This document shows, in pieces, positions 2,883 to 20,386 of a stretch of 32,000 nucleotides of DNA. The stretch lies in contig NZ_JHXR01000001.1 of assembly GCF_000621645.1 (NCBI RefSeq), positions 270,001 through 302,000 on the forward strand. Direction: 5' to 3'. The stretch is from Vibrio cholerae ATCC 14035 (GTDB lineage: Bacteria; Pseudomonadota; Gammaproteobacteria; Enterobacterales; Vibrionaceae). The first letter of the stretch is position 1, and each line of letters begins with the position of its first letter. A program made the position numbers and the translations under genes. The notes beneath the pieces are model-generated. The model was not told where the DNA came from. It saw only the letters and a program-made list of their open reading frames with translations, and searched no databases.

Positions 2883-3647
2883 TTACCACTTTTTCTTCTC
2901 GCCAAAGAGCACATCCATGTCACTTTTGCGTTCATTTTCTTCAATTTGTTGGAGGTCAGAAGCACTTTTGTTTTGACGTTTCTGCTCAAGTTCATCATAC
3001 ATAGTCTGTAACTTTTCACGGGCTTGATTTGAGTAGCTGTCATTTTTTGAGGACAAGACATCAATCCCTTTACGTAGTAGTTGGATTGCAGTGCCGGGTT
3101 GCCCACGCAAAATCGAGTCGTTAGCGCGCTTAATCACGTTTTCGATGTTGATTCGAATCTGAATGGTCTCTAAGCGAGCATTTTCTGCCACATAGGCTTG
3201 GGTTTCAAAACGTCCTTTATTGTGCTCACTGCGAATGGTGTCACGCAGACGTTTAACTAGCTTTAGCATGATGATGGCTTGTTTATCGCTGCTAGGAACC
3301 TTAAATGAAGTACTTTCACCACCCGGATGGTTATTTTGCAGGTGGTTGATCTGTCCCTTCATATTTTCGATACGTTGAGCGAGTTGTTTATTTTTAGGAT
3401 CAAGGTCATACATGCTTTGTAGTGCATCAAGAATACGGTTATTCAAGCAGACTAAAAGCTCTTTACTGAATGGCAGATGGTGAGCATTGCCGATTAAATC
3501 TTCAGTTGCATCAATAATGGCCACATAGCGCGAGGATTCCTGTTTCTTGGCGCTTTCGACTTTCACCCGATATTGCAACATGATGTTGTAGCCAAGAACC
3601 AAAATGAGCAAAATGGCCACCAGAGCAATGATTAAACCTATATTCAT
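2883..3647 (-). CDS. Membrane-anchored coiled-coil protein of unknown function
   Basis: The ORF is open to a TTG at 3671, which has no SD. The ATG at 3647 gives MNIGLIIALVAILLILVLGYNIML, a single N-terminal TM helix. The rest is charged and helical (coiled-coil-like) with a K/E-rich tail. I recognise no family. Confidence 0.6.
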   Translation of the reverse strand: MNIGLIIALVAILLILVLGYNIMLQYRVKVESAKKQESSRYVAIIDATEDLIGNAHHLPFSKELLVCLNNRILDALQSMYDLDPKNKQLAQRIENMKGQINHLQNNHPGGESTSFKVPSSDKQAIIMLKLVKRLRDTIRSEHNKGRFETQAYVAENARLETIQIRINIENVIKRANDSILRGQPGTAIQLLRKGIDVLSSKNDSYSNQAREKLQTMYDELEQKRQNKSASDLQQIEENERKSDMDVLFGEKKKW

Positions 3648-3875
3648 AAAATCCGTATCTTCAGTTTTCAATGGCTAACGATTAAGGATACACGCTCGTT
3701 GTGATCCCGACAATTTACTCTGTTGATTATTCCCGTTTTATCATGCAAAAACCGCTTTCCCACGATGAGTTTGAGCGTTGCGTGGCAATTTTTTCACCGA
3801 ATAAGCAAGGCGCTGAATATTCATTTCACGCTTCTCTCGATAAAGGCTAGGAATTGTCGCGCTGAAGCGTTATAA

Positions 3876-7490: not shown

Positions 7491-7985
7491 ATGGTGGATA
7501 GTTATAAGAAGCCGTCTAAGGACTTAGACCGTATAGATCGCAATATATTGAATGAATTGCAAAAAGACGGTCGAATTTCAAACGTAGAGTTATCAAAGCG
7601 TGTAGGGCTTTCACCTACACCCTGTCTTGAGCGTGTTCGTCGTCTAGAACGTCAAGGGTTTATTACTGGTTATACTGCATTATTGAACCCTCAGTATTTG
7701 GACGCCTCACTGTTGGTGTTTGTTGAAATTACGTTAAATCGTGGCGCGCCCGATGTATTTGAACAGTTTAATGCCGCGGTACAAAAGTTGGATGATATTC
7801 AAGAGTGTCACCTAGTTTCTGGTGATTTTGACTATCTGCTGAAAACCCGTGTATCGGATATGGGGGCTTATCGCCGTTTGTTAGGTGATACCTTGCTCCG
7901 TTTGCCGGGAGTCAATGACACTCGTACTTACGTGGTCATGGAAGAAGTGAAGCAAACCAACCAATTAGTGATTAAAACTCGCTAA
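7491..7985 (+). CDS. lrp: Leucine-responsive regulatory protein (Lrp/AsnC family)
   Basis: 164-aa ORF with DRIDRNILNELQKDGRISNVELSKRVGLSPTPCLERVRRLERQGFI. ftsK follows, as in E. coli. Confidence 0.95.
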   Translation: MVDSYKKPSKDLDRIDRNILNELQKDGRISNVELSKRVGLSPTPCLERVRRLERQGFITGYTALLNPQYLDASLLVFVEITLNRGAPDVFEQFNAAVQKLDDIQECHLVSGDFDYLLKTRVSDMGAYRRLLGDTLLRLPGVNDTRTYVVMEEVKQTNQLVIKTR

Positions 7986-8071
7986 CTTAAAGCGAATGTT
8001 GGAGATCTTTCCACATTCTGACTTTCGTGAATTGGGTTTTTGCCCTTGATATGGTTAAATCTCCAAACAAA

Positions 8072-8100
8072 CCGAGCGGCGTTGGCCGCTCGGACTGTTT
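8072..8100 (+). terminator. Probable lrp terminator
   Basis: ccgagcggc-gttg-gccgctcgg 9-bp GC-rich stem, followed by actgttt (a poor U-tract). Confidence 0.5.
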
Positions 8101-8150
8101 CACCGCCATGAAACTGCGTATAGTGTTGCGCATTATGGCCTTAATCATAG

Positions 8151-11045
<2,895 letters not shown>

Positions 11046-11065
11046 ACAGCAGAAACAACAAAAGT

Positions 11066-11092
11066 AAAAAAGGCGCTTTAAGCGCCTTTTTT
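11066..11092. terminator. Bidirectional rho-independent terminator between convergent ftsK and dsbB
   Basis: aaaaaaggcgc-tttaa-gcgcctttttt: a hairpin flanked by an A-run and a T-run. Confidence 0.8.
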
Positions 11093-11120
11093 ATCAACCG
11101 GATTGAGCGATGCGATTGGC

Positions 11121-11642
11121 TTAGCGTGAGGTTTTAGCCAGTTGTGCGACGACAAAAATCGCTAATGCGAGTAAGTTTGCCGCGAAGATAACGACAAGCC
11201 ACTGTGGCATAGAGAGCGTCAAAAACTGCCATACCACCTTGCTACAGTCACCATACGCTTCAAACAGATTGGGAGCCCATTGGTTGAGCGGAGCCCAAGC
11301 CGGGAAGGTGACAAACAGATCGCAAGTACCAAAAGGCGAAGGGTTAAACTGGTAGTTGACATGCTCGATCGCCAGCATCAAACCTTTGTAGCTGCTGGCA
11401 CCCCAAGCAGCAAAACCGAGCCAACGTACGACAGGGTTTTGTGGTGCAATTGCGCCAATCAAGGCGGCGACACCAATCCCCAGCATAGCGATACGTTCAT
11501 AGATACACATGACACAAGGTGCAAGTAGCATCACATGTTGAAAGTACATGGCACACAAGGTAAAGAAAACGACAAATGCCAGCAGCAACAGCCAAGATAA
11601 TCGCGACTGAGAAAAGGTTTTAAGGGAGGATAATATACGCAC
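11121..11642 (-). CDS. dsbB: Disulfide bond formation protein B
   Basis: 173-aa ORF with a GTG start and SD aagga. Four TM segments, CVMCIYER (CxxC pair) and a second Cys pair in the periplasmic loop. The dsbB-nhaB-fadR order matches E. coli. Confidence 0.9.
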   Translation of the reverse strand: MRILSSLKTFSQSRLSWLLLLAFVVFFTLCAMYFQHVMLLAPCVMCIYERIAMLGIGVAALIGAIAPQNPVVRWLGFAAWGASSYKGLMLAIEHVNYQFNPSPFGTCDLFVTFPAWAPLNQWAPNLFEAYGDCSKVVWQFLTLSMPQWLVVIFAANLLALAIFVVAQLAKTSR

Positions 11643-11655
11643 AGATAGATCCTTG

Positions 11656-11686
11656 TTAAAAAGAAAAGCTCTGAATACTCAGAGCT
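11656..11686 (-). terminator. Rho-independent terminator of nhaB
   Basis: On the minus strand: agctctga-gtat-tcagagct followed by TTTTCTTTTT. Confidence 0.75.
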
Positions 11687-11721
11687 TTGTATCTTGGATT
11701 AGTTTCAGTTTCAATTGAAAT

Positions 11722-13314
11722 TTAGTGGCCACTTTGCAGTAGTGCATCTGCAGCTGGCGCGACATGATGGCTGATCCAACCTAGGCTATAGAACACTTCA
11801 GTCATTGGCTCAAGTAAGAACATGATGCCAATAAAACCAACCAGTGAAAGCGCCAGCGTATAAGGAAACGCCATGATGACCATACGACCGTAAGAGAGAC
11901 GGATTAGTGGCGCCAAAGCCGAAGTGAGCAAGAATAAGAAGGCCGCTTGACCGTTCGGTGTGGCTACTGAAGGTAAGTTGGTGCCGGTATTGATGGCGAC
12001 GGCCAACAAATCAAATTGGTCACGTGAAATCATGCCTTCCATCAGTGCGGTTTTTACTTCAGTGATGTAAACCGTCCCCACAAACACGTTGTCTGACACC
12101 ATGGAAAGTAGACCATTCGCCACATAGAAGAGTGCGAGCTGAGTGCCATGGTCTTCGACATTTAGTACCGCATCAATCACGGGTTTGAACAGCTCTTGGT
12201 CGATAATAACTGCAACAATCGAGAAGAAAACCGCCAGCAATGCGGTAAACGGTAGCGCTTCTTCAAACGCTTTACCTAGCGAATGTTCTTCAATCACACC
12301 AGTAAAAGCTGTGGCGAGAATAATCACCGACAAACCAATAAGACCAACGGCGGCTAAGTGAAGAGCTAAGCCCACAATCAACCAAACCGCGATAGCACCT
12401 TGCACCCAGAGTTTGGCAACGTCTTGGTTTGTGCGGTTTTTGCGCTCTTCTGAGTCAAAATCGAGCAGAATTTGACGAACATTGGCAGGAAGACGAGCTC
12501 CGTAGCCAAAAATGCGGAATTTCTCAACCAACATACAGGTCAGCATACCTGCAATAAACACGGGTACGGTAACGGGGGCCATGCGGAGTAGGAACTCACC
12601 AAATTGCCAGCCTGCTTGGTCAGCAATGATCAGGTTTTGTGGTTCACCGACCATAGTGGTGACACCACCCAGTGCTGTACCCACACCTGCGTGCATCAGC
12701 AGTGAACGTAAAAATGCACGATAGTTTTCTAAGTCATCACGAGTTAATTCTGAAATACCTTCATCATGGGTGTGATCGTGAGAAGAGTGAACACTTTGAC
12801 CCGAAGCAACCTTGTGATAAATCGAGTAGAAACCCACCGCCACACTGATGATGACCGCAATCACTGTCAGCGCATCTAGGAAGGCAGAGAGAAACGCTGC
12901 CGTAACACTAAAGGCTATCGAAAGGAGAACTTTGGAGCGAATGCCAAGCAGAATTTTAGTGAAAATAAACAGCAGCAGTTGCTTCATAAAATAGATGCCT
13001 GCCACCATAAACACCAACAGTAGCAATACCTCGATATTGGCAACCAGTTCATGCTTAACTTGCCCCGGACTTGTCATCCCAATCGCAATCGCTTCAATCG
13101 CAAGTAAACCACCCGGTTGTAGAGGGTAGCATTTCAGTGCCATGGCCAGAGTAAAAATAAACTCAACCACTAATAACCAACCCGCGAGGAAGGGATTAAT
13201 AAAGAAGAACACTATTGGGTTAATAATAAGAAAAGCAATGATGGCAACTTTGTACCAATCAGGCGCTTTACCAAGGAAATTCTTGATAAACGCGTTTCCG
13301 AGGGACATCGGCAT
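11722..13314 (-). CDS. nhaB: Na+/H+ antiporter NhaB
   Basis: 530-aa polytopic membrane ORF beginning [22 protein letters not shown]. Divergent from fadR, as in E. coli. Confidence 0.93.
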
Positions 13315-13885
13315 GATGATTACTCTTTAACTGTTGTTATAGATAGACTTTGTGTCGTACCTGCTTTCACCAAAGCATGAGACTCAGTGTGTAGACAAAA
13401 TCTTTTCAACAGTGATTTAGCAGGAAAATAAGGTTGTTCACCGATTCAATTCCAGCTAAGTCACTCCCTGAGAAAAACAAGCACTCCGTACTTCGACCGC
13501 AACTCTACTTGTCGTTACACAATAGTCAACAACAAATATCATGATGATAAAAAGTTACTAAACTTTCGTTAAAAAACGCGATCTAAGTGGTGTAAGCATA
13601 ACACAAAGTTGACGAAAAATTCATTTAGAAGCCGTGAGTTAGGTGAAATTGAATTTAATACATCTTTACTCCAAAGAAATACCTCTTTCGAGTAAGTTTA
13701 TTTTGCTAATTAGAAATAGGATAGTGTGAGCTGTGTCCATTTAATTTCAGGTGTTTTATGTAGTCGATGAAAAGAAAAGTGTTTACCAGTCATCTTATAA
13801 GCAAAATGTTCACAATGATTCGCTCAAGTTAAATTAGAGTAATTGCACTATGTCTGCTTTGTGACAAGTTTATCGATGCTTGGTT

Positions 13886-13913
13886 TTCGACGTACACCAA
13901 CTAGTGGTATGAT
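13886..13913 (+). promoter_or_regulatory. Candidate sigma70 promoter of fadR
   Basis: TTCGAC (13886-13891), a 16-nt spacer, then the extended -10 TGgTATGAT (-10 hexamer at 13908-13913), about 45 nt upstream of the fadR ATG. Confidence 0.4.
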
Positions 13914-13958
13914 GAGTGCCATTCGACCCAAATAAAACAAGTATTGGATTAGTCATTA

Positions 13959-14798
13959 ATGGTCATTAAGGCAAAAAGCCCAGCCGGTTTCGCTGAGAAG
14001 TATATTATTGAAAGTATTTGGAACGGCCGCTTTCCGCCAGGTTCCATCTTACCTGCAGAGCGTGAGCTTTCTGAATTGATCGGTGTTACGCGTACCACAC
14101 TACGTGAGGTGTTACAGCGTTTAGCGCGTGATGGTTGGCTCACGATTCAACACGGTAAACCCACCAAGGTGAATCAGTTTATGGAAACATCAGGTTTGCA
14201 TATTCTTGATACCTTGATGACTCTTGATGCAGAGAATGCCACCAGCATTGTTGAAGACTTACTAGCTGCAAGAACCAATATCAGCCCCATTTTCATGCGT
14301 TACGCTTTTAAGCTAAATAAAGAGAGCGCAGAGCGGATCATGATCAATGTGATTGAGTCTTGTGAAGCCTTGGTTAACGCCCCTTCTTGGGATGCGTTTA
14401 TCGCAGCTTCTCCCTATGCGGAAAAAATCCAGCAGCACGTGAAAGAAGACAGCGAAAAAGATGAGCTCAAAAGGCAGGAAATCTTGATCGCGAAAACATT
14501 TAATTTCTACGATTACATGTTATTCCAGCGTCTCGCTTTCCATTCTGGTAACCAGATTTACGGTTTGATCTTTAACGGGTTGAAAAAGCTGTATGACCGT
14601 GTGGGAAGTTACTATTTTTCCAATCCTCAAGCGCGTGAATTGGCCATGGAATTCTACCGTCAGTTGTTAGCTGTGTGCCAAAGCGGCGAGCGTGAGCATT
14701 TGCCTCAGGTTATTCGTCAGTATGGTATTGCTAGCGGACACATCTGGAATCAGATGAAAATGACGCTGCCGTCCAATTTTACTGAAGACGATTGCTAA
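13959..14798 (+). CDS. fadR: Fatty-acid metabolism regulator FadR (GntR family), long Vibrio form
   Basis: 279-aa ORF beginning [72 protein letters not shown]. It carries about 40 extra residues in the effector domain relative to the 239-aa E. coli protein. Confidence 0.95.
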
Positions 14799-14824
14799 TC
14801 TAGCACTGTTCGTTTTCGTTAAAG

Positions 14825-14851
14825 AAGCCCGCATTGTCACGCGGGCTTTTT
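14825..14851 (+). terminator. Rho-independent terminator of fadR
   Basis: aagcccgc-attgtcac-gcgggctt followed by TTT. Confidence 0.75.
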
Positions 14852-14892
14852 ACTATTGAAATTAATCCCAATCCCTTGAGTTTAGTGATGAT

Positions 14893-15023
14893 GGTTATCC
14901 CCTTTCTACTTGAAGCTGCAGGGGTGTTGGCTACGTTCGTTCACCCCAATCACATAGCCTCTCTATGCTCATGGGGATGAATTCACTTGCCGCCTACCTG
15001 CAACTCCAAGTTGTTTGGGTATA
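14893..15023 (-). repeat. ERIC/IRU-like imperfect-palindromic intergenic repeat, copy 1
   Basis: Its reverse complement aligns by eye with 25346-25468. Shared blocks are tatacccaaac, acttggagtt, ggcaagtg, catccccatgagcatag, gattgggg, tagccaa and gcttcaagtag. The internal arms acttggagttgcagg and cctgcagcttcaagt can pair. The core resembles the ERIC consensus (GTGAATCCCCAGGAGC...GACTGGGGTGAGCG...AGCCAAC) as I recall it. Confidence 0.75.
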
Positions 15024-15032
15024 GAGATTGAC

Positions 15033-16184
15033 TTAATTTCCCCCTGCGGCTTTGAACCATTGGGTTAAATGGGTTTTCAAATCTTTCAATTCATCTGGAC
15101 CAATCAAAGCCAGCCCCAAATCTTCGGCACGCGTAATATCGTTATGGCGTAGAGGGCGGAAGCTGACCAACATAGCTCGAGCCTGTAGACCGCCGAGAAG
15201 GTCACGCAGAGATTCGAGTTTGTACAAGGTATCGTCACCGTCATCACGCATCCCTTTGGTTTTACACTCAATAATGTGCAGTTTGTTGTTCACCACGGTC
15301 GCCACATCCAACTCGTTACGCACTTCTCTCTCTCCAAGCTGGCGATAGACTTGCACGTTCAGCGAGCGATCTTGAATGGTTGGCATGTCATCTTGGATCT
15401 GTTTTACAGTGCTGTGAACTAGGGTTTCTAACCACTCACCATTGGCAAAGCGACGAGCCTCTTCGTTTATGAACGTGAGAATGCCGTTTTCATAACTGGC
15501 AATCTTGGCCTCAACCAGATCGCTGAGTAGCAAGTTTAATTCGCGATAGCCTTGCTGTTTGTCAGATAATTCCACATCCAGCTTCTGCTCTTTTCGGCAA
15601 GTGGTGGCGAGGTAATTGAGGGTGGCGAGGCCTGGGCCTAATTCCAATGCATTACTCGCCCAGCGTTCGCCAAGCTGATACAACTGCTGATCTAATTGTG
15701 GAGAGAGTTGATGCTCATTGAATTCGCCACGCGCACCAAAAATGGTGAGATAGTCGGCAATGGTGATGCGGTCTTGAACTTGAGTATCGTTATTGCCTTC
15801 GGGATACAGCCAGCATAAGCAGTCACTATTGGGTTCTACGACAAAAATTGGCCAGTGGTAGCTGCGAAACACTTCGTAAGCCGACAGCAAGCGGTGGCGT
15901 AACCCACAACTGGCGTTGAATTTGACCTCTTCACCACGCGCTTTAAGTGTTTCGGCAAGTTCTCGAATCGCACTTTTGATGGCAGAGGTGTTTGAGCCGG
16001 CGGGAATTTCAAAGAAGTCTGTTGAGATATTACGCTTGTTTAAAACGTCGCTAAGGCGTTGATAAATTACCGTTTGGGTATGGTCGCCAATAAAAATAAT
16101 GTGGCGGCTAACGGTTCGATGATCGAGCAGCGGTGTCACTAAGCGAACCGGGTCCTGATCGATAATCCCTACGTGAATAGCCAT
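15033..16184 (-). CDS. Stand-alone CARF-like / wHTH-like / PD-(D/E)xK nuclease-fold protein (Card1/Can2-type, DUF1887-like)
   Basis: 383-aa ORF with SD gagga 6 nt before the ATG. The N-terminal half has Rossmann-like beta/alpha alternation (MAIHVGIID, HIIFIGD, VKFNASCGLRH). The C-terminal part has the nuclease motif GEWLE ... ELDVATVVNNKLHIIECKTKG (E, D, ExK). I recall the V. cholerae member of this family being discussed as a CARF plus restriction-endonuclease fusion. Confidence 0.7.
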   Translation of the reverse strand: MAIHVGIIDQDPVRLVTPLLDHRTVSRHIIFIGDHTQTVIYQRLSDVLNKRNISTDFFEIPAGSNTSAIKSAIRELAETLKARGEEVKFNASCGLRHRLLSAYEVFRSYHWPIFVVEPNSDCLCWLYPEGNNDTQVQDRITIADYLTIFGARGEFNEHQLSPQLDQQLYQLGERWASNALELGPGLATLNYLATTCRKEQKLDVELSDKQQGYRELNLLLSDLVEAKIASYENGILTFINEEARRFANGEWLETLVHSTVKQIQDDMPTIQDRSLNVQVYRQLGEREVRNELDVATVVNNKLHIIECKTKGMRDDGDDTLYKLESLRDLLGGLQARAMLVSFRPLRHNDITRAEDLGLALIGPDELKDLKTHLTQWFKAAGGN

Positions 16185-16262
16185 AAAGTGTCCTCATGAT
16201 TTGCTTGCATGAGTGGAGGGAAAAGTGGCGCAAGCTTGTTACTCATATAACGATGAGGTGTT

Positions 16263-16299
16263 GAAAAAACAAGAGCGACTCTGATGAAAAGTCGCTCTT
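16263..16299 (-). terminator. Rho-independent terminator of the MCP gene
   Basis: On the minus strand: aagagcgac-ttttcatcag-gtcgctctt followed by gTTTTTTc. It separates the MCP gene from the CARF-nuclease gene. Confidence 0.8.
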
Positions 16300-16353
16300 T
16301 GTGGAAAAATTGACAGTAAGAGTATCTAGCAAGAGTGCTAGCCGTTCATCGGA

Positions 16354-18345
16354 TTAGAGTTTAAACCTATGGACTAACTCACTCTGTTGGTTGGCGAGTG
16401 CGGTCAAATTCGCACTGGTTTGCGCAATTTGTGACATCGCTTGGTAGCTTTCATCCGAGATATGGTTGATATCTTCGATGCTGCGAGCGATCGAGGTGGT
16501 GGTTTCGTTTTGCTCACCGGCCGCTTGAGAGATATGCGTACTCATATGGCTGATTTCGATGATCAATGCTTGAATTTCTTCCATGGCACTGTTGGCATGG
16601 GAAGCTTGTTCGACGGAGAGTTCCATATCTTGCATACAGCTCTCAATAACCTTACTGGCTAATGAAGAGCTGGATTGCAGATTGCTGATCATCGATTCGA
16701 TTTCTGACGTCGATTGCGTTGTGCGCTGCGCAAGAACGCGAACTTCATCCGCCACCACCGCAAAGCCGCGGCCTTGTTCTCCTGCACGCGCCGCTTCAAT
16801 CGCAGCATTGAGCGCCAAAAGGTTGGTCTGCTCAGCAATATTGCGGATGACATCTAAGATAGAGCCGATTTGGCTGCTCATCTTGCGTAAGTCGCCGACC
16901 GCCTCGACTGACTCGATTAAGCGTGTTTCAAGTTGACGGATTGTGCTGATGTTGGTGCTCATGATCTGGCGGCCTGACTCCGATGCGGTTTCGACTTGTT
17001 GCACCATCGCCAGTGAATTTTGCGCACTATTGGCGACTTCTTGCACCGAGTGAGCCATTTCCGTCATTGCGGCTGCGACGCTAGAGGTCTGTTCACGTTG
17101 ACTGTTGAGCTTGTTTTGTGCACTCAGTGAGGTCGTTTGGTTTGTCGATGCTGTCGCGGTCAAATCATCGGAGGCACTGTTGAGCTTGACTAAAATGTCG
17201 TGTAGGTTATCGGCAAGACTATTGATGTGACGGCTCAGGCGGCTGAATTCGTTGTTGTAGCGAATCTCAATTCGTTGCGTCATATTGCCTTGGGTGAGGC
17301 TTTCTAAGGTTTTGAGGATCCGAGTTACGGGTTCACGCACACTGTGCGCAATGTGGTAACCAATCGCAGTTGCCAATAGAACGACGGCAATACCAATCAC
17401 TACCGCTTTAATCGCACCTTGTTGGTAAACTGAGCCGGCTTCAGCAAGGGATTGGTTCAGGTCGTCGGTCGCCGTTTGGTTAAACGCGCCTAAAATGGTC
17501 ATTGCTTTGTCCACTTCATTGGCGAGGTTGGCAATATTGTTATAGAGCGCAGCGCGAGCTTGCAGATATTCATTGTGTTGATCCAGTACGCCGCCTTTTT
17601 GGCCGATGTCTTGGGTGAATTTCGCGACTGGCTCATCAAAGCGCTCTTTCAACTGCGGCATCTGCGTGGTGAGGCCTCGGTACGCGTAGTTTAGGTGGGT
17701 AACCGCTTTTTTGTTTTGATTGACCGCTTTTTCCACAAAGGCGACATCTGAACTGGCTAAGGCATCAGAAGTGATCACTTCGGCATCTTTTAATTTGATG
17801 AAGTAGCTTTTGGCCATCACTTTGACCGAAATGCTGTCGTTGTCATCGACAAACTCTTTCATCCCGACACTCAGTTCTGAATGAAGACGTTGGAACTCAC
17901 GAGTCGACTTTTGCACGGAAGCTTGAGCAGCAAACATGGCTTGATAGTTATCCATGGCGAGGTCAGCTTCACTAAAATAGCGGGTTTCGAGCTGCTTTAA
18001 TTCCGTGATTGGCTGTGCCAGTTCGGGATGATTCACACTGGCTTGACTCAGTTCCGCCAAAACAGATTGAAAGCGCTGTTTAGACTGAGCAAACTCTTGA
18101 CGCATACCGTCCATGAGCGAAGTATCTTGCGTAGTCAGAAAGTCTTTAAACGATTTATCGGCAGACAAGAGTTGAACACTCGTCTGATTAGAGAGAGAGA
18201 CGAGAGGCAATGCAGCGGTTGAAACACTTTCAAAATTGCTGTGAATTTGATTCATGCCACGAAGCATGATGGCGACAGTCACCACAAACATTATGATGAT
18301 CAGCGCAAAACCGGCATACATACGCCGAATAACGGAACCCTGCAT
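16354..18345 (-). CDS. Methyl-accepting chemotaxis protein with a large helical periplasmic sensor, HAMP and MA domains
   Basis: The ORF is open to 18372. The ATG at 18345 (MQGSVIRR...) is preceded by gagggagag, so I prefer it. Two TM helices flank a periplasmic region of about 284 aa. Signalling-domain signature [38 protein letters not shown]. Confidence 0.9.
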
Positions 18346-18967: not shown

Positions 18968-20386
18968 ATGTTGATGGTGACGAATCACGTGGTTCAATAC
19001 ATTAAACGACCTATACGTAGCCTCACTCTTACTTCACTACTGCTCGCGGGGTGTGCCAATCTCACTGCGGGCAATCTTTTTAGCCATTACAGTGCGCAAA
19101 ACAGTGATTTATATCAGTCTGTTGCGGCAGGGCAATACCAACAAGCTACGCAGTTATTGCCCGATTATGTCGCCGGTGAAGTGTTAGACAACCTTGAAAA
19201 AGGTCGGGTTTATTTTCTTAGCCAGCAATACGCAGAAAGCCAGCAAAGTTTGGCTGCTGCAGATTTGGCGGTTAAACAGCAGCAAGACCGAGCGATCATC
19301 TCTGTGAGTAGTACCGCGACCAGTGTGGGTTCGCTGGCGGTCAACGATAACTTGAATGAGTACGAACCTGCCGATTATGAACTGGGCTTTTTGCACCTGT
19401 ACTTAGGGCTGAATTATGTGCGCAATAATGATCTGGATGGTGCATTAGTTGAAATGCGCCGCGCTAACCAAGTTCAGGAAGCCGCTAAAAAACGCCGTGA
19501 ACAAGCGTTGTCCAGTGCGGAGCAAGAGATGCGCTCACAAGGATTATCCCCGAACTTAGGCAGTGTGCTTGCACAATATCCAGATGCCGGAAAAACCTTA
19601 CAAGCGGTGCAAAATGGTTATCTGTTGTATCTTTCGGCGCTGCTTTATGAAGCGGATAATGATTTGAACTCGGCTTATGTTGACTACCGCAGAGCACTGG
19701 CGGTTGCCCCCAATAATCCATCGGTTATTGATGGAACACTTCGAGTCGCGTCTCGGCTTGGCATGCAACAAGATCTCAAGCTTCTTAAACAGCAATATGG
19801 TGAGCCTAAACGCTTAACCTCTGCGCAAGGCCGAGTCATCGTCATAGAAGAGCAGGGTATAGTACAACCTAAGCAAGCGTGGCGACTCTCTTTACCTTTG
19901 TCTGACAGTCGTGGCAATACGGCGCTGTATTCTTTGGCTCTGCCTTATTATTCATCTTCGGTGGCGCAGAGTCGTGTACCGATCAGTCTAAATGGCGCTA
20001 GTTTGGCCTCTATGCCAGTTACTGATGTGGATTTGATGGCTAAGCAGGCATTAACGGAGCAAATGCCTGCGCTGGTACTGCGCCAAGCGCTGCGTGTGGT
20101 CGCCAAAGACCAATTACGCAAAGAGACGACTCAGGAAGAGGATGTCGCCAATTTAGTGTTTAATATTTGGAATACGTTAACGGAGCAGCCTGATACACGC
20201 AGCTGGTTAACCTTGCCCGCCACAGTCAATACGGCCACCCAAGTGGTGAAAGCGGGTGATCAAGTGCTGGATATTGCAGGGACTCACTATACCTTTCATG
20301 TTCCAGAAAATGGCACAGTGTTAGTTTGGCTATCTCACCAAGGTAACAATGTGACAATTTGGCATAAACAACTAGGGATACGGTAA
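18968..20386 (+). CDS. Large lipoprotein of unknown function (TPR-like N-terminal half; COG3014-like)
   Basis: 472-aa ORF starting 12 nt after hinT. Signal peptide with lipobox LLLAGC. Helical repeat region (YELGFLHLYLGLNYVRNNDLDGALVEMRRA...LSALLYEADNDLNSAYVDYRRALAV). Its stop overlaps the ycfL start (TAATG). Confidence 0.65.
   Translation: MLMVTNHVVQYIKRPIRSLTLTSLLLAGCANLTAGNLFSHYSAQNSDLYQSVAAGQYQQATQLLPDYVAGEVLDNLEKGRVYFLSQQYAESQQSLAAADLAVKQQQDRAIISVSSTATSVGSLAVNDNLNEYEPADYELGFLHLYLGLNYVRNNDLDGALVEMRRANQVQEAAKKRREQALSSAEQEMRSQGLSPNLGSVLAQYPDAGKTLQAVQNGYLLYLSALLYEADNDLNSAYVDYRRALAVAPNNPSVIDGTLRVASRLGMQQDLKLLKQQYGEPKRLTSAQGRVIVIEEQGIVQPKQAWRLSLPLSDSRGNTALYSLALPYYSSSVAQSRVPISLNGASLASMPVTDVDLMAKQALTEQMPALVLRQALRVVAKDQLRKETTQEEDVANLVFNIWNTLTEQPDTRSWLTLPATVNTATQVVKAGDQVLDIAGTHYTFHVPENGTVLVWLSHQGNNVTIWHKQLGIR

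Follow-up and report, generated by a model that had tools for sequence, protein, structure and literature searches.

What keeps a nuclease of the antiviral defence type in a bacterium where nothing in its surroundings makes a signal for it? The question is raised by a gene of Vibrio cholerae ATCC 14035 that lies in a stretch of 32,000 nucleotides (contig NZ_JHXR01000001.1, positions 270,001 to 302,000), to which we refer as the window and whose first letter is position 1 of the coordinates given below.

15033..16184, minus strand: VC1899 coding sequence, 383 aa plus stop codon, a Can2/Card1-family nuclease made of CARF, winged helix-turn-helix (wHTH) and PD-(D/E)xK parts

All the peptide strings by which the gene had been recognized (MAIHVGIID, HIIFIGD, VKFNASCGLRH, GEWLE and ELDVATVVNNKLHIIECKTKG) were found in this 383-aa open reading frame (ORF) of the minus strand. 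Over its 383 residues the protein shows 100% identity to the PDB entry 1XMX, “hypothetical protein VC1899” of Vibrio cholerae, a crystal structure that dates from 2004. An earlier inspection of the DNA letters alone (the sequence-only reading) had presented it as an uncharacterized, fresh lead, a claim that has to be withdrawn, as VC1899 had already been purified and called an orphan by Zhu et al. (2021; PMC7969007). The object itself is known: its domains, its orphan status and its lack of response to cyclic tetra-adenylate (cA4) are all published. What the present analysis adds is evidence against the published “degenerate” label, a defined signature of the ligand pocket, and a hypothesis on the ligand that comes from relatives linked to CorA genes. 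On balance, we lean towards the view that VC1899 is a functional ligand-gated CARF nuclease with a conserved, remodelled pocket, that its activator is not cA4, and that it was captured from a type III CRISPR lineage.

The fold of VC1899 is that of a CARF protein, as seen in the solved structure and in the Foldseek matches, and its chain can be divided into three parts. The protein is a dimer, and the nuclease at its C-terminus is of the metal-dependent kind.

15735..16184, minus strand: CARF domain, approximately aa 1–150, from the secondary structure of the model and Foldseek
15465..15734, minus strand: helical, winged-helix middle region, approximately aa 151–240, with helices at 162–225 plus short strands in the model
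15036..15464, minus strand: PD-(D/E)xK nuclease domain, approximately aa 241–383, with E253, E291, D293, E306 and K308

The pocket motifs of the CARF domain are IID9-Q-D11-P, which ends strand 1, and N90-A-S92-C-G94-L-R96 after strand 4. Three domains (Rossmann-like, winged HTH and restriction endonuclease) were described for 1XMX by Makarova et al. (2006; PMC1462988). The AlphaFold model of VC1899 had a mean predicted local distance difference test (pLDDT) value of 92 and a template modelling (TM) score of 0.97 to 1XMX; next came the Can2 structure 7BDV (TM 0.78–0.87), and then Cdn1, Card1, other Can2 structures and Can1. The full-length Foldseek matches were Can2 and Cdn1 (TM 0.78–0.87) and Card1 (TM 0.65–0.70), and Cam1 and Csa3 matched over the CARF domain only. 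With Pfam, PF09002 (Card1_endonuc) matched residues 240–379 at 8.5e-64 (213.6 bits, cutoff 26.4), and PF23400 (CARF_Card1) reached 19.3 bits, under its cutoff of 24.6. The PADLOC models “Csx1” and “CARF4--CARF_PDDEXK” covered the full length at 1e-146 to 1e-150 (1.7e-146 for CARF4--CARF_PDDEXK), and an NCBIfam search with the protein gave no match. The Card1/Can2 architecture proposed by the sequence-only reading, i.e., a Rossmann-like CARF domain, a winged helix and a restriction-endonuclease fold, agrees with 1XMX, with PF09002 and with the model and its structural matches.

VC1899 is the founding member of the DUF1887/PF09002 family, Can2/Card1 (PMC7969007), and served Makarova et al. (2014; PMC4012209) as the model CARF domain; these authors already pointed out that some genes of the VC1899 family are not linked to CRISPR. 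Zhu et al. (2021; PMC7969007) found that the purified protein neither nicked nor degraded supercoiled plasmid at 37 or 50°C and had a weak residual RNase activity that was not regulated by cA4. In their structural comparison the cA4 contacts of Can2, S19, T42, K99 and Y118, correspond to D9, D34, R96 and V115 of VC1899, and the rest of the pocket (Q10, D11, R14, L95, P118 and Q334) is acidic or hydrophobic. The apo form is “open”, with about 45 Å between the nuclease helices against about 25 Å in cA4-bound Can2 (PMC7969007). They proposed that VC1899 is a degenerate defence enzyme, cast adrift (PMC7969007). The only functional paper on this protein, the template on which the CARF domain was defined, dismissed it as degenerate. 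In our literature search we found no functional study of VC1899 past that of Zhu et al. (2021), and the other mentions were an entry in a table of single nucleotide polymorphisms, another in a table of predicted small RNA targets (V. alginolyticus), and the name VC_1899_0 of an unrelated phage cluster.

The conservation of the gene tells a different story from the “degenerate” label. We scanned GTDB with one genome per species and found relatives in 414 species; the comparisons of Vibrio loci use the best 80 of these 414, which belong to 80 different Vibrio species. The best 120 protein matches were also all from Vibrio, with 82–100% identity. Across the 80 loci the median identity to the V. 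cholerae protein was 83.8% for VC1899, and for the flanking proteins it was 84.2% (FadR), 85.7% (NhaB), 83.2% (YcfP), 75.7% (DsbB), 77.8% (HinT), 73.6% (chemoreceptor) and 71.5% (FtsK). There were no frameshifted or truncated copies among the 80 loci, all ORFs having 1146–1149 nt or more. The ratio of non-synonymous to synonymous substitution rates (dN/dS) was 0.030 against V. mimicus and 0.029 against V. metoecus, with the neighboring genes spanning 0.002–0.069. When 15 independent pairs of close species with unsaturated dS (0.15–1.07) were pooled, dN/dS was 0.014 for the whole gene, and the values by domain were 0.024 (CARF), 0.010 (middle region) and 0.009 (nuclease). All three domains are under strong purifying selection, and VC1899 is a core gene of Vibrio that is functional and passed on vertically; other genera of the Vibrionaceae have orthologues of it. 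A mobile-element origin of the Vibrio gene was considered and rejected: tblastn gave no match in 50,697 phage records and a single weak one, from Aeromonas, in 72,556 plasmids, and no relative of VC1899 was found in the IMG/VR viral contigs.

The pocket itself was examined in an alignment of 106 orthologues from Vibrio, Photobacterium, Salinivibrio, Thaumasiovibrio and Paraphotobacterium (42–94% identity to VC1899). D9, D11, T17, N90, S92, C93, G94, R96 and Q334 were present in 106/106, R14, L95 and V115 in 105, P118 in 103 and Q10 in 98. On the nuclease side D293, E306 and K308 were found in all 106, and E253 and E291 in 105. Within the CARF domain, seven of the nine pocket residues (the ligand-site residues of Zhu et al.) were conserved in at least 97% of the orthologues, compared to 53 of the other 141. 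For the wider family we used 131 representatives, one per cluster of 50% identity. Their large majority carries the canonical Can2 pocket, S/Q/[ST]/T/T/K/Y at positions 9/11/34/92/95/96/115 (position 9 is S in 82 of the 131), whereas the sequences nearest to VC1899 have D/D/x/S/x/R/V. At the cA4 contacts, which lie at the end of strand 1 and after strands 2, 4 and 5 and are D9, D34, R96 and V115 in VC1899, most of the representatives have S, S/T, K and Y. After strand 4 the signature [DN]x[ST]xxx[RK] of CARF ligand sites, as defined by Makarova et al. (2014; PMC4012209), is present as N90-A-S92-C-G94-L-R96, and the place of the polar alcohol residue (S/T) that ends strand 1 is taken by D9. The catalytic constellation E...ExD...ExK is complete in VC1899, and the 131 representatives all have D293, E306 and K308 and nearly all of them E253 and E291. 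Since the variant residues are near-invariant and those of the nuclease are kept throughout the family, the pocket (D9/D11/S92/R96/V115) is a coherent, conserved variant rather than a product of random decay. These data speak more for a functional protein whose remodelled pocket is conserved than for the published view, and taken together the behavior as a core gene, the low dN/dS and the invariant key residues make the “degenerate” label unlikely. Two matters left to be settled by the sequence-only reading have hereby found an answer: the gene is core and not accessory, being found in all the 80 Vibrio loci fetched, and its E/D/ExK catalytic residues and most of its pocket are conserved across the 106 Vibrionaceae orthologues.

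Second, divergent copies exist besides the syntenic orthologue. The one of V. azureus (P0421, BS333_15930) is 58% identical to VC1899, and V. owensii has a similar one (P0410); both keep the pocket residues of VC1899 and have F in place of H4.

We searched the window and 1.66 Mb around 82 Vibrionaceae orthologues for a partner with in-house hidden Markov models of Cas10, Cas7, Cas1, Cas2, Cas6, CorA, NrN and DEDD, and nothing was found. The window has no CRISPR-like array, and the Pfam matches of its 24 other ORFs included no cas gene, cyclase or mobile-element gene. No type III CRISPR-Cas locus adjoins VC1899 in the window or its orthologues at the 82 loci, which sets it apart from an ancillary effector of such systems, and no type III-B or III-D2 locus with CorA accompanied by NrN, DEDD or S-adenosylmethionine (SAM) lyase lies nearby. 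The orphan status stated by the sequence-only reading therefore holds well beyond the window.

The situation is different among more distant relatives. The VC1899-like clade reaches the Alteromonadales (Shewanella, Pseudoalteromonas, Thalassotalea, Paraglaciecola, Salinimonas and Alteromonas), and among the relatives we found four loci in which the nuclease gene is accompanied by CorA and CRISPR genes. These loci, for which we keep our own numbers, are the following.

L089 (a longer stretch of the L086 contig), 7779–14049: nuclease gene between two CorA-like genes; CRISPR array, Cas2, reverse transcriptase (RT)-Cas1, DEDD nuclease and a 761-aa Cas7 fusion
L087, 7001–14470: nuclease gene, directly followed by the array, then Cas2, RT-Cas1, CorA, DEDD and a Cas7_IIId-like protein
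L114, 9863–20744: nuclease gene overlapping CorA (1.7e-120), then Cas10, Cas7-5 and Cas7 fusions
L169 (Paraglaciecola sp. 20A4), 8001–17161: nuclease gene, NrN-like “DHH_CorA” gene, CorA, Cas10, Cas7-5 and Cas7

Their nucleases have the S92/R96 class of pocket and are 29–35% identical to VC1899. NrN or DEDD is present in three of the four (NrN-like in L169, DEDD in L087 and L089), and the set of Cas10, Cas7-5 and Cas7 fusion is fully visible in L114 and L169 only. Judged by gene content, the layout seems to be type III-D2-like, as in the system of Mitsuda et al. (2026; PMC13294483), which makes SAM-AMP and SAM-AMP2. CorA in company with NrN or DEDD characterizes SAM-AMP signalling (PMC10600005, PMC11229360), and type III loci mostly use a single signal (PMC11229360). 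Counting every CRISPR-linked locus fetched, partial contigs included, CorA was beside the nuclease gene in 4/8 loci with the S92/R96 pocket versus 0/20 with the T92/K96 pocket (Fisher p = 0.003), in a small sample for which CorA-linked queries had served as seeds. That CorA universally goes with the variant pocket was rejected, because no CorA is visible in L110, L163, L120 and L130, all of them CRISPR-linked. The literature searched contained no paper describing a CARF nuclease within CorA (SAM-AMP-type) loci and no report of a CARF protein that binds SAM-AMP.

Other relatives have different surroundings. Stand-alone genes amid housekeeping genes were found in Photobacterium, Salinivibrio and Shewanella gelidii, and Salinimonas and a close relative (L170 and L172) have a stand-alone copy in two assemblies with common synteny. 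Those of Pseudoalteromonas translucida and L090 are in variable or mobile regions, and those of L084, L085, L091, L092, L162 and L163 come directly after a TraG/VirD4-like ATPase. The latter is a recurrent module, in which a TraG/VirD4-like coupling-protein ATPase of about 510 aa is followed by an adjoining or overlapping Card1-like nuclease (L084, 6488–10467; L085, 5428–8164). In Thalassotalea a 428-aa unknown protein comes next, and the regions of L162 and L163 also have a CARF5-like match, to which L163 adds Cas7 fusions and an RT-Cas1-like gene. Possibly, this is an undescribed defence or CRISPR-ancillary module. In L093 (404–5885, a short contig) the nuclease, with 39% identity and the pocket D/N/S/R/V, is among the closest relatives from outside the Vibrionaceae, and ahead of it come a 938-aa CHAT-domain protein and a CARF protein of the Cas_NE0113 type; the region looks like a CRISPR-ancillary or defence cassette. 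Upstream of the CorA and Card1-like genes of L089 (707–7594) there are six consecutive ORFs (295, 177, 965, 288, 157 and 331 aa) for which PADLOC gave nil or very weak matches and Pfam almost nil. These ORFs may be part of the CRISPR locus or make up a system of their own.

The scenario that we favour would run as follows. The ancestor would have been an ancillary nuclease of a type III CRISPR lineage whose pocket had by then been adapted to some signal different from cA4. An ancestor of the Vibrionaceae would have captured such a nuclease and kept it as a stand-alone chromosomal gene. A small molecule would bind across the CARF dimer of VC1899, in a site lined by D9, D11, R14, R96, V115 and Q334, and would bring both nuclease domains together over RNA or DNA, in the way of cA4 in Can2; the unliganded protein would be left with just the weak basal RNase activity of the in vitro assays. 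This ligand would not be cA4, and the most concrete candidate may be a cationic or adenosyl-sulfonium nucleotide of the SAM-AMP type. For the Vibrio protein this candidate is weakly supported, by analogy with the CorA loci, because no synthase was seen near the 82 Vibrionaceae loci. A bolder version, to which we give little credence, is that the whole clade with D9/D11/S92/R96/V115 would be a CARF lineage re-tuned from cyclic oligoadenylate (cOA) to a SAM-AMP-type signal. In CorA type III-D2 systems the members linked to CRISPR would serve as the nuclease arm, and the Vibrionaceae copy would have been domesticated as a core stand-alone nuclease sensing such a molecule, or a related endogenous SAM-derived nucleotide, from an invader or from host metabolism.

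Several points weigh against the reading of VC1899 as a gated nuclease with a new ligand, and some of them concern the pocket directly. D34, one of the four substituted contact positions, varies (62/106 orthologues), and the excess of conserved pocket residues relative to the remaining CARF positions (Fisher p = 0.02, Mann-Whitney p = 0.006) comes from statistics that ignore shared ancestry. Conservation proves function and not ligand gating, so that the pocket could serve a protein contact or folding. Published assays show neither ligand binding nor robust nuclease activity for VC1899 (PMC7969007). As to a SAM-AMP-type ligand, to the missing synthase and to the size and seeding of the CorA tally must be added that the S92/R96-type nucleases of L093, L110 and L163 sit with CARF5-type partners that are also found beside canonical Can2, and this makes one new ligand common to the entire clade less likely. 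In the neighbor-joining tree the Vibrionaceae clade had a bootstrap of 99, and the deep nodes only 10–50; with the deep branching left unresolved by these values, the S92/R96 class is not claimed to be monophyletic.

How do the alternatives fare against the same evidence? The one of Zhu et al. (2021), a relic of a type III CRISPR effector that has lost its partner and its function and is drifting, would explain the in vitro results (no response to cA4, no DNA nicking and weak RNase), the cA4 contacts missing from the pocket and the lack of CRISPR-Cas genes in the window and around the 82 orthologues. Drift is contradicted already by the strong constraint in the selection data, with a pooled dN/dS of 0.014 that stays at or below 0.025 in each domain. 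A protein as conserved as FadR and NhaB over 80 Vibrio species, with no frameshifted or truncated copy, with catalytic and pocket residues that are invariant or nearly so and with a conserved synteny and leader element (see below), does not look like a relic, and we find this explanation hardly tenable. VC1899 might instead be a conventional cOA effector, responding to cA3, cA6 or another cOA that would be made by a type III CRISPR system, a cyclic oligonucleotide-based antiphage signalling system (CBASS) or an mCpol-type enzyme located elsewhere in the genome or on mobile elements. Family membership and the [DN]x[ST]xxx[RK] motif with R96 retained are in keeping with this, as are the CARF5 neighbors that some S92/R96 relatives share with canonical Can2. 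Besides, cA4 alone is reported as tested (PMC7969007), so that cA3 and cA6 are not formally excluded, a point that counts at the same time against the new-ligand reading. An acidic and hydrophobic pocket (D9, D11, V115 and L95) is nevertheless unfavourable for a polyanionic ligand, and no cyclase was found near the orthologues at the 82 loci. Type III CRISPR is rare in the genus Vibrio, and the gene is present in all the 80 Vibrio loci fetched; the two distributions therefore do not match. We regard a conventional cOA effector as very unlikely.

The main rival is a constitutive housekeeping nuclease, in which the CARF domain would be a scaffold for dimerization or protein docking and the enzyme would act in RNA turnover, DNA repair or in a restriction-like role with no small-molecule switch. 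Such a protein would be expected to behave as a core gene in a housekeeping neighborhood, as VC1899 does, and its basal RNase activity is independent of cA4 (PMC7969007). There is also a precedent in TieA of H. pylori, a DUF1887 protein from outside CRISPR that was reported to be a non-specific DNase (PMC5100599), and the independent stand-alone copies, syntenic in Salinimonas and its close relative (L170 and L172) and in a housekeeping context in Shewanella, point the same way. What speaks against it is the place of the constraint: conservation within the CARF domain peaks at the residues of the canonical ligand site, together with Q334 that reaches in from the nuclease domain. Moreover, weak activity in vitro is as expected of an unliganded, open state. 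We consider this rival unlikely, and yet the one that deserves most attention after the gated nuclease that we favour.

The long retention of a defence-type sensor-nuclease without a CRISPR system implies that something must control VC1899. If a ligand were found, CARF chemistry would be extended past the cyclic oligoadenylates and a signalling pathway would be revealed in the agent of cholera and other Vibrio pathogens. Should the SAM-AMP reading be true, this would be the first CARF sensor of a CRISPR messenger that is not a cOA, and an entire bacterial family would have turned a defence effector into a fixed, housekeeping-like gene. Were there no ligand at all, VC1899 would exemplify the exaptation of a CRISPR effector into a housekeeping nuclease.

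The sequences that flank the gene in the window contain several elements.

16191..16195, minus strand: Shine-Dalgarno sequence GAGGA, 6 nt before the ATG, read from the sequence
16203..16235, minus strand: conserved inverted repeat GCTTGC-N21-GCAAGC, putative 5′ leader of VC1899, sole match in the window
16245..16250, minus strand: TTATAT (-10-like) box, between the terminator below and the leader repeat, from conservation
16261..16299, minus strand: intrinsic terminator of the upstream chemoreceptor (methyl-accepting chemotaxis protein, MCP) gene, 12-bp stem plus T-run
14900..15024, minus strand: imperfect palindromic repeat (“ERIC-like” in the sequence-only reading), Rfam RF02818 V_AS5
14822–14851: fadR hairpin, downstream of VC1899 and its repeat

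The gene's own GAGGA (16195–16191), the MCP terminator directly upstream (hairpin 16299–16271, then the T-run), and the repeat and fadR terminator downstream had all been noticed before and were found in place. GAGGA or AAGGA is kept at this site across the Vibrio intergenic alignments, and so is the terminator hairpin, which divides the chemoreceptor gene and VC1899 into two transcription units. The leader repeat was present in 13/13 aligned Vibrio species, mostly as GGCTTGC...GCAAGCC with a variable, pyrimidine-rich loop. In all the Vibrio species inspected (loci L001–L080) it was found between a TTATATG box and the Shine-Dalgarno sequence as GGCTTGC-N22-35-GCAAGCC, with spacers of up to about 90. 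RNAalifold gave a hairpin of seven pairs. There was no compensatory covariation in the Vibrio alignments, only two U-A to U-G changes, and Rfam had no match at the repeat; lacking covariation, an RNA hairpin and a DNA operator look the same here. The -10-like box is (T/C)(T/A)ATATG across the aligned species and probably acts as the VC1899 promoter, to judge from its conservation and position; a scan for consensus promoters called none at 16245..16250. The palindromic repeat starts 9 nt past the stop codon (arms 14896–14922 and 14997–15023) and matched RF02818 (“Vibrio RNA AS5”) with 101.6 bits (gathering score 96), on the strand that also carries VC1899. It may be part of the 3′ untranslated region of VC1899 rather than an independent antisense RNA.

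Further out, the window has the genes lapB, pyrF, miaE, a LysR regulator, a methyltransferase, ald, lrp, ftsK, dsbB, nhaB and fadR, and beyond VC1899 the chemoreceptor, hinT, ycfL/lpoB/thiK-like genes, ycfP, ndh, a GNAT protein, a lectin, csiV and mfd. The Pfam matches of the 24 other ORFs were all to housekeeping families, and PADLOC, run on 10 of them, found no defence family except for a generic HIT-family match. Two ORFs had no Pfam or PADLOC match: one of 262 aa (2883–3671, minus strand) and one of 472 aa (18968–20386, plus strand) between hinT and a DUF1425 gene, the latter being kept and syntenic in 75 Vibrio loci with about 61% median identity. The chemoreceptor gene was upstream of VC1899, on the same strand and 137–440 bp off, in 76 of the 77 loci having an upstream flank. 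The pairing is near-universal in Vibrio but absent in Photobacterium and Salinivibrio, and therefore it was taken as synteny by descent and a functional link was rejected. A link to fadR was rejected as well, since this gene is downstream, in the order fadR-nhaB-dsbB, in 39/80 loci only, the others having other housekeeping genes there; the loci of the Splendidus and Harveyi groups that were inspected have udp, a heavy-metal ATPase, a MATE transporter and a CBS protein. Directly 3′ of the orthologue there is a chromosomal rearrangement breakpoint (L001–L080), and three loci have inserts of 3–5 kb at this side, one of which (L042) carries norR-hcp-hcr.

Among the known systems, Can2 is the closest to VC1899. 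Both have the same three-part architecture and dimer (sequence E-value 1e-26, TM 0.78–0.87), an identical nuclease constellation E..ExD..ExK, and the [DN]x[ST]xxx[RK] motif of the CARF domain. They differ in the four cA4 contacts S19, T42, K99 and Y118 of Can2, which are D9, D34, R96 and V115 in VC1899, in the absence of cA4 activation or nicking by VC1899 in vitro (PMC7969007), and in the genomic context, as VC1899 has no link to CRISPR-Cas and is a chromosomal core gene of Vibrio. Card1 of Treponema succinifaciens (6WXW/6XL1) and Cdn1 (9U49/8Z4I) share its family and fold (TM 0.65–0.82), but their identity to VC1899 is 16–18% and they are encoded in CRISPR loci and activated by cOA, whereas the pocket of VC1899 is acidic. 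Ligand range is known to be plastic in the CARF4 clade, with binding of cA4 and cA6 and dual activation in Cdn1 (PMC12825302). In the CorA-type III-B and III-D2 systems that signal by SAM-AMP (PMC10600005, PMC13294483), CorA adjoins the genes of the four S92/R96 relatives listed above and not VC1899; the connection is one of guilt by association at 29–35% identity. Finally, RtcR-type and other CARF proteins from outside CRISPR provide a precedent that CARF domains beyond these loci may sense other ligands, and CARF families without the basic residue probably bind distinct ones (PMC4012209). VC1899 differs from the RtcR type in that it keeps the basic R96 and has as its output a nuclease instead of a transcription factor.

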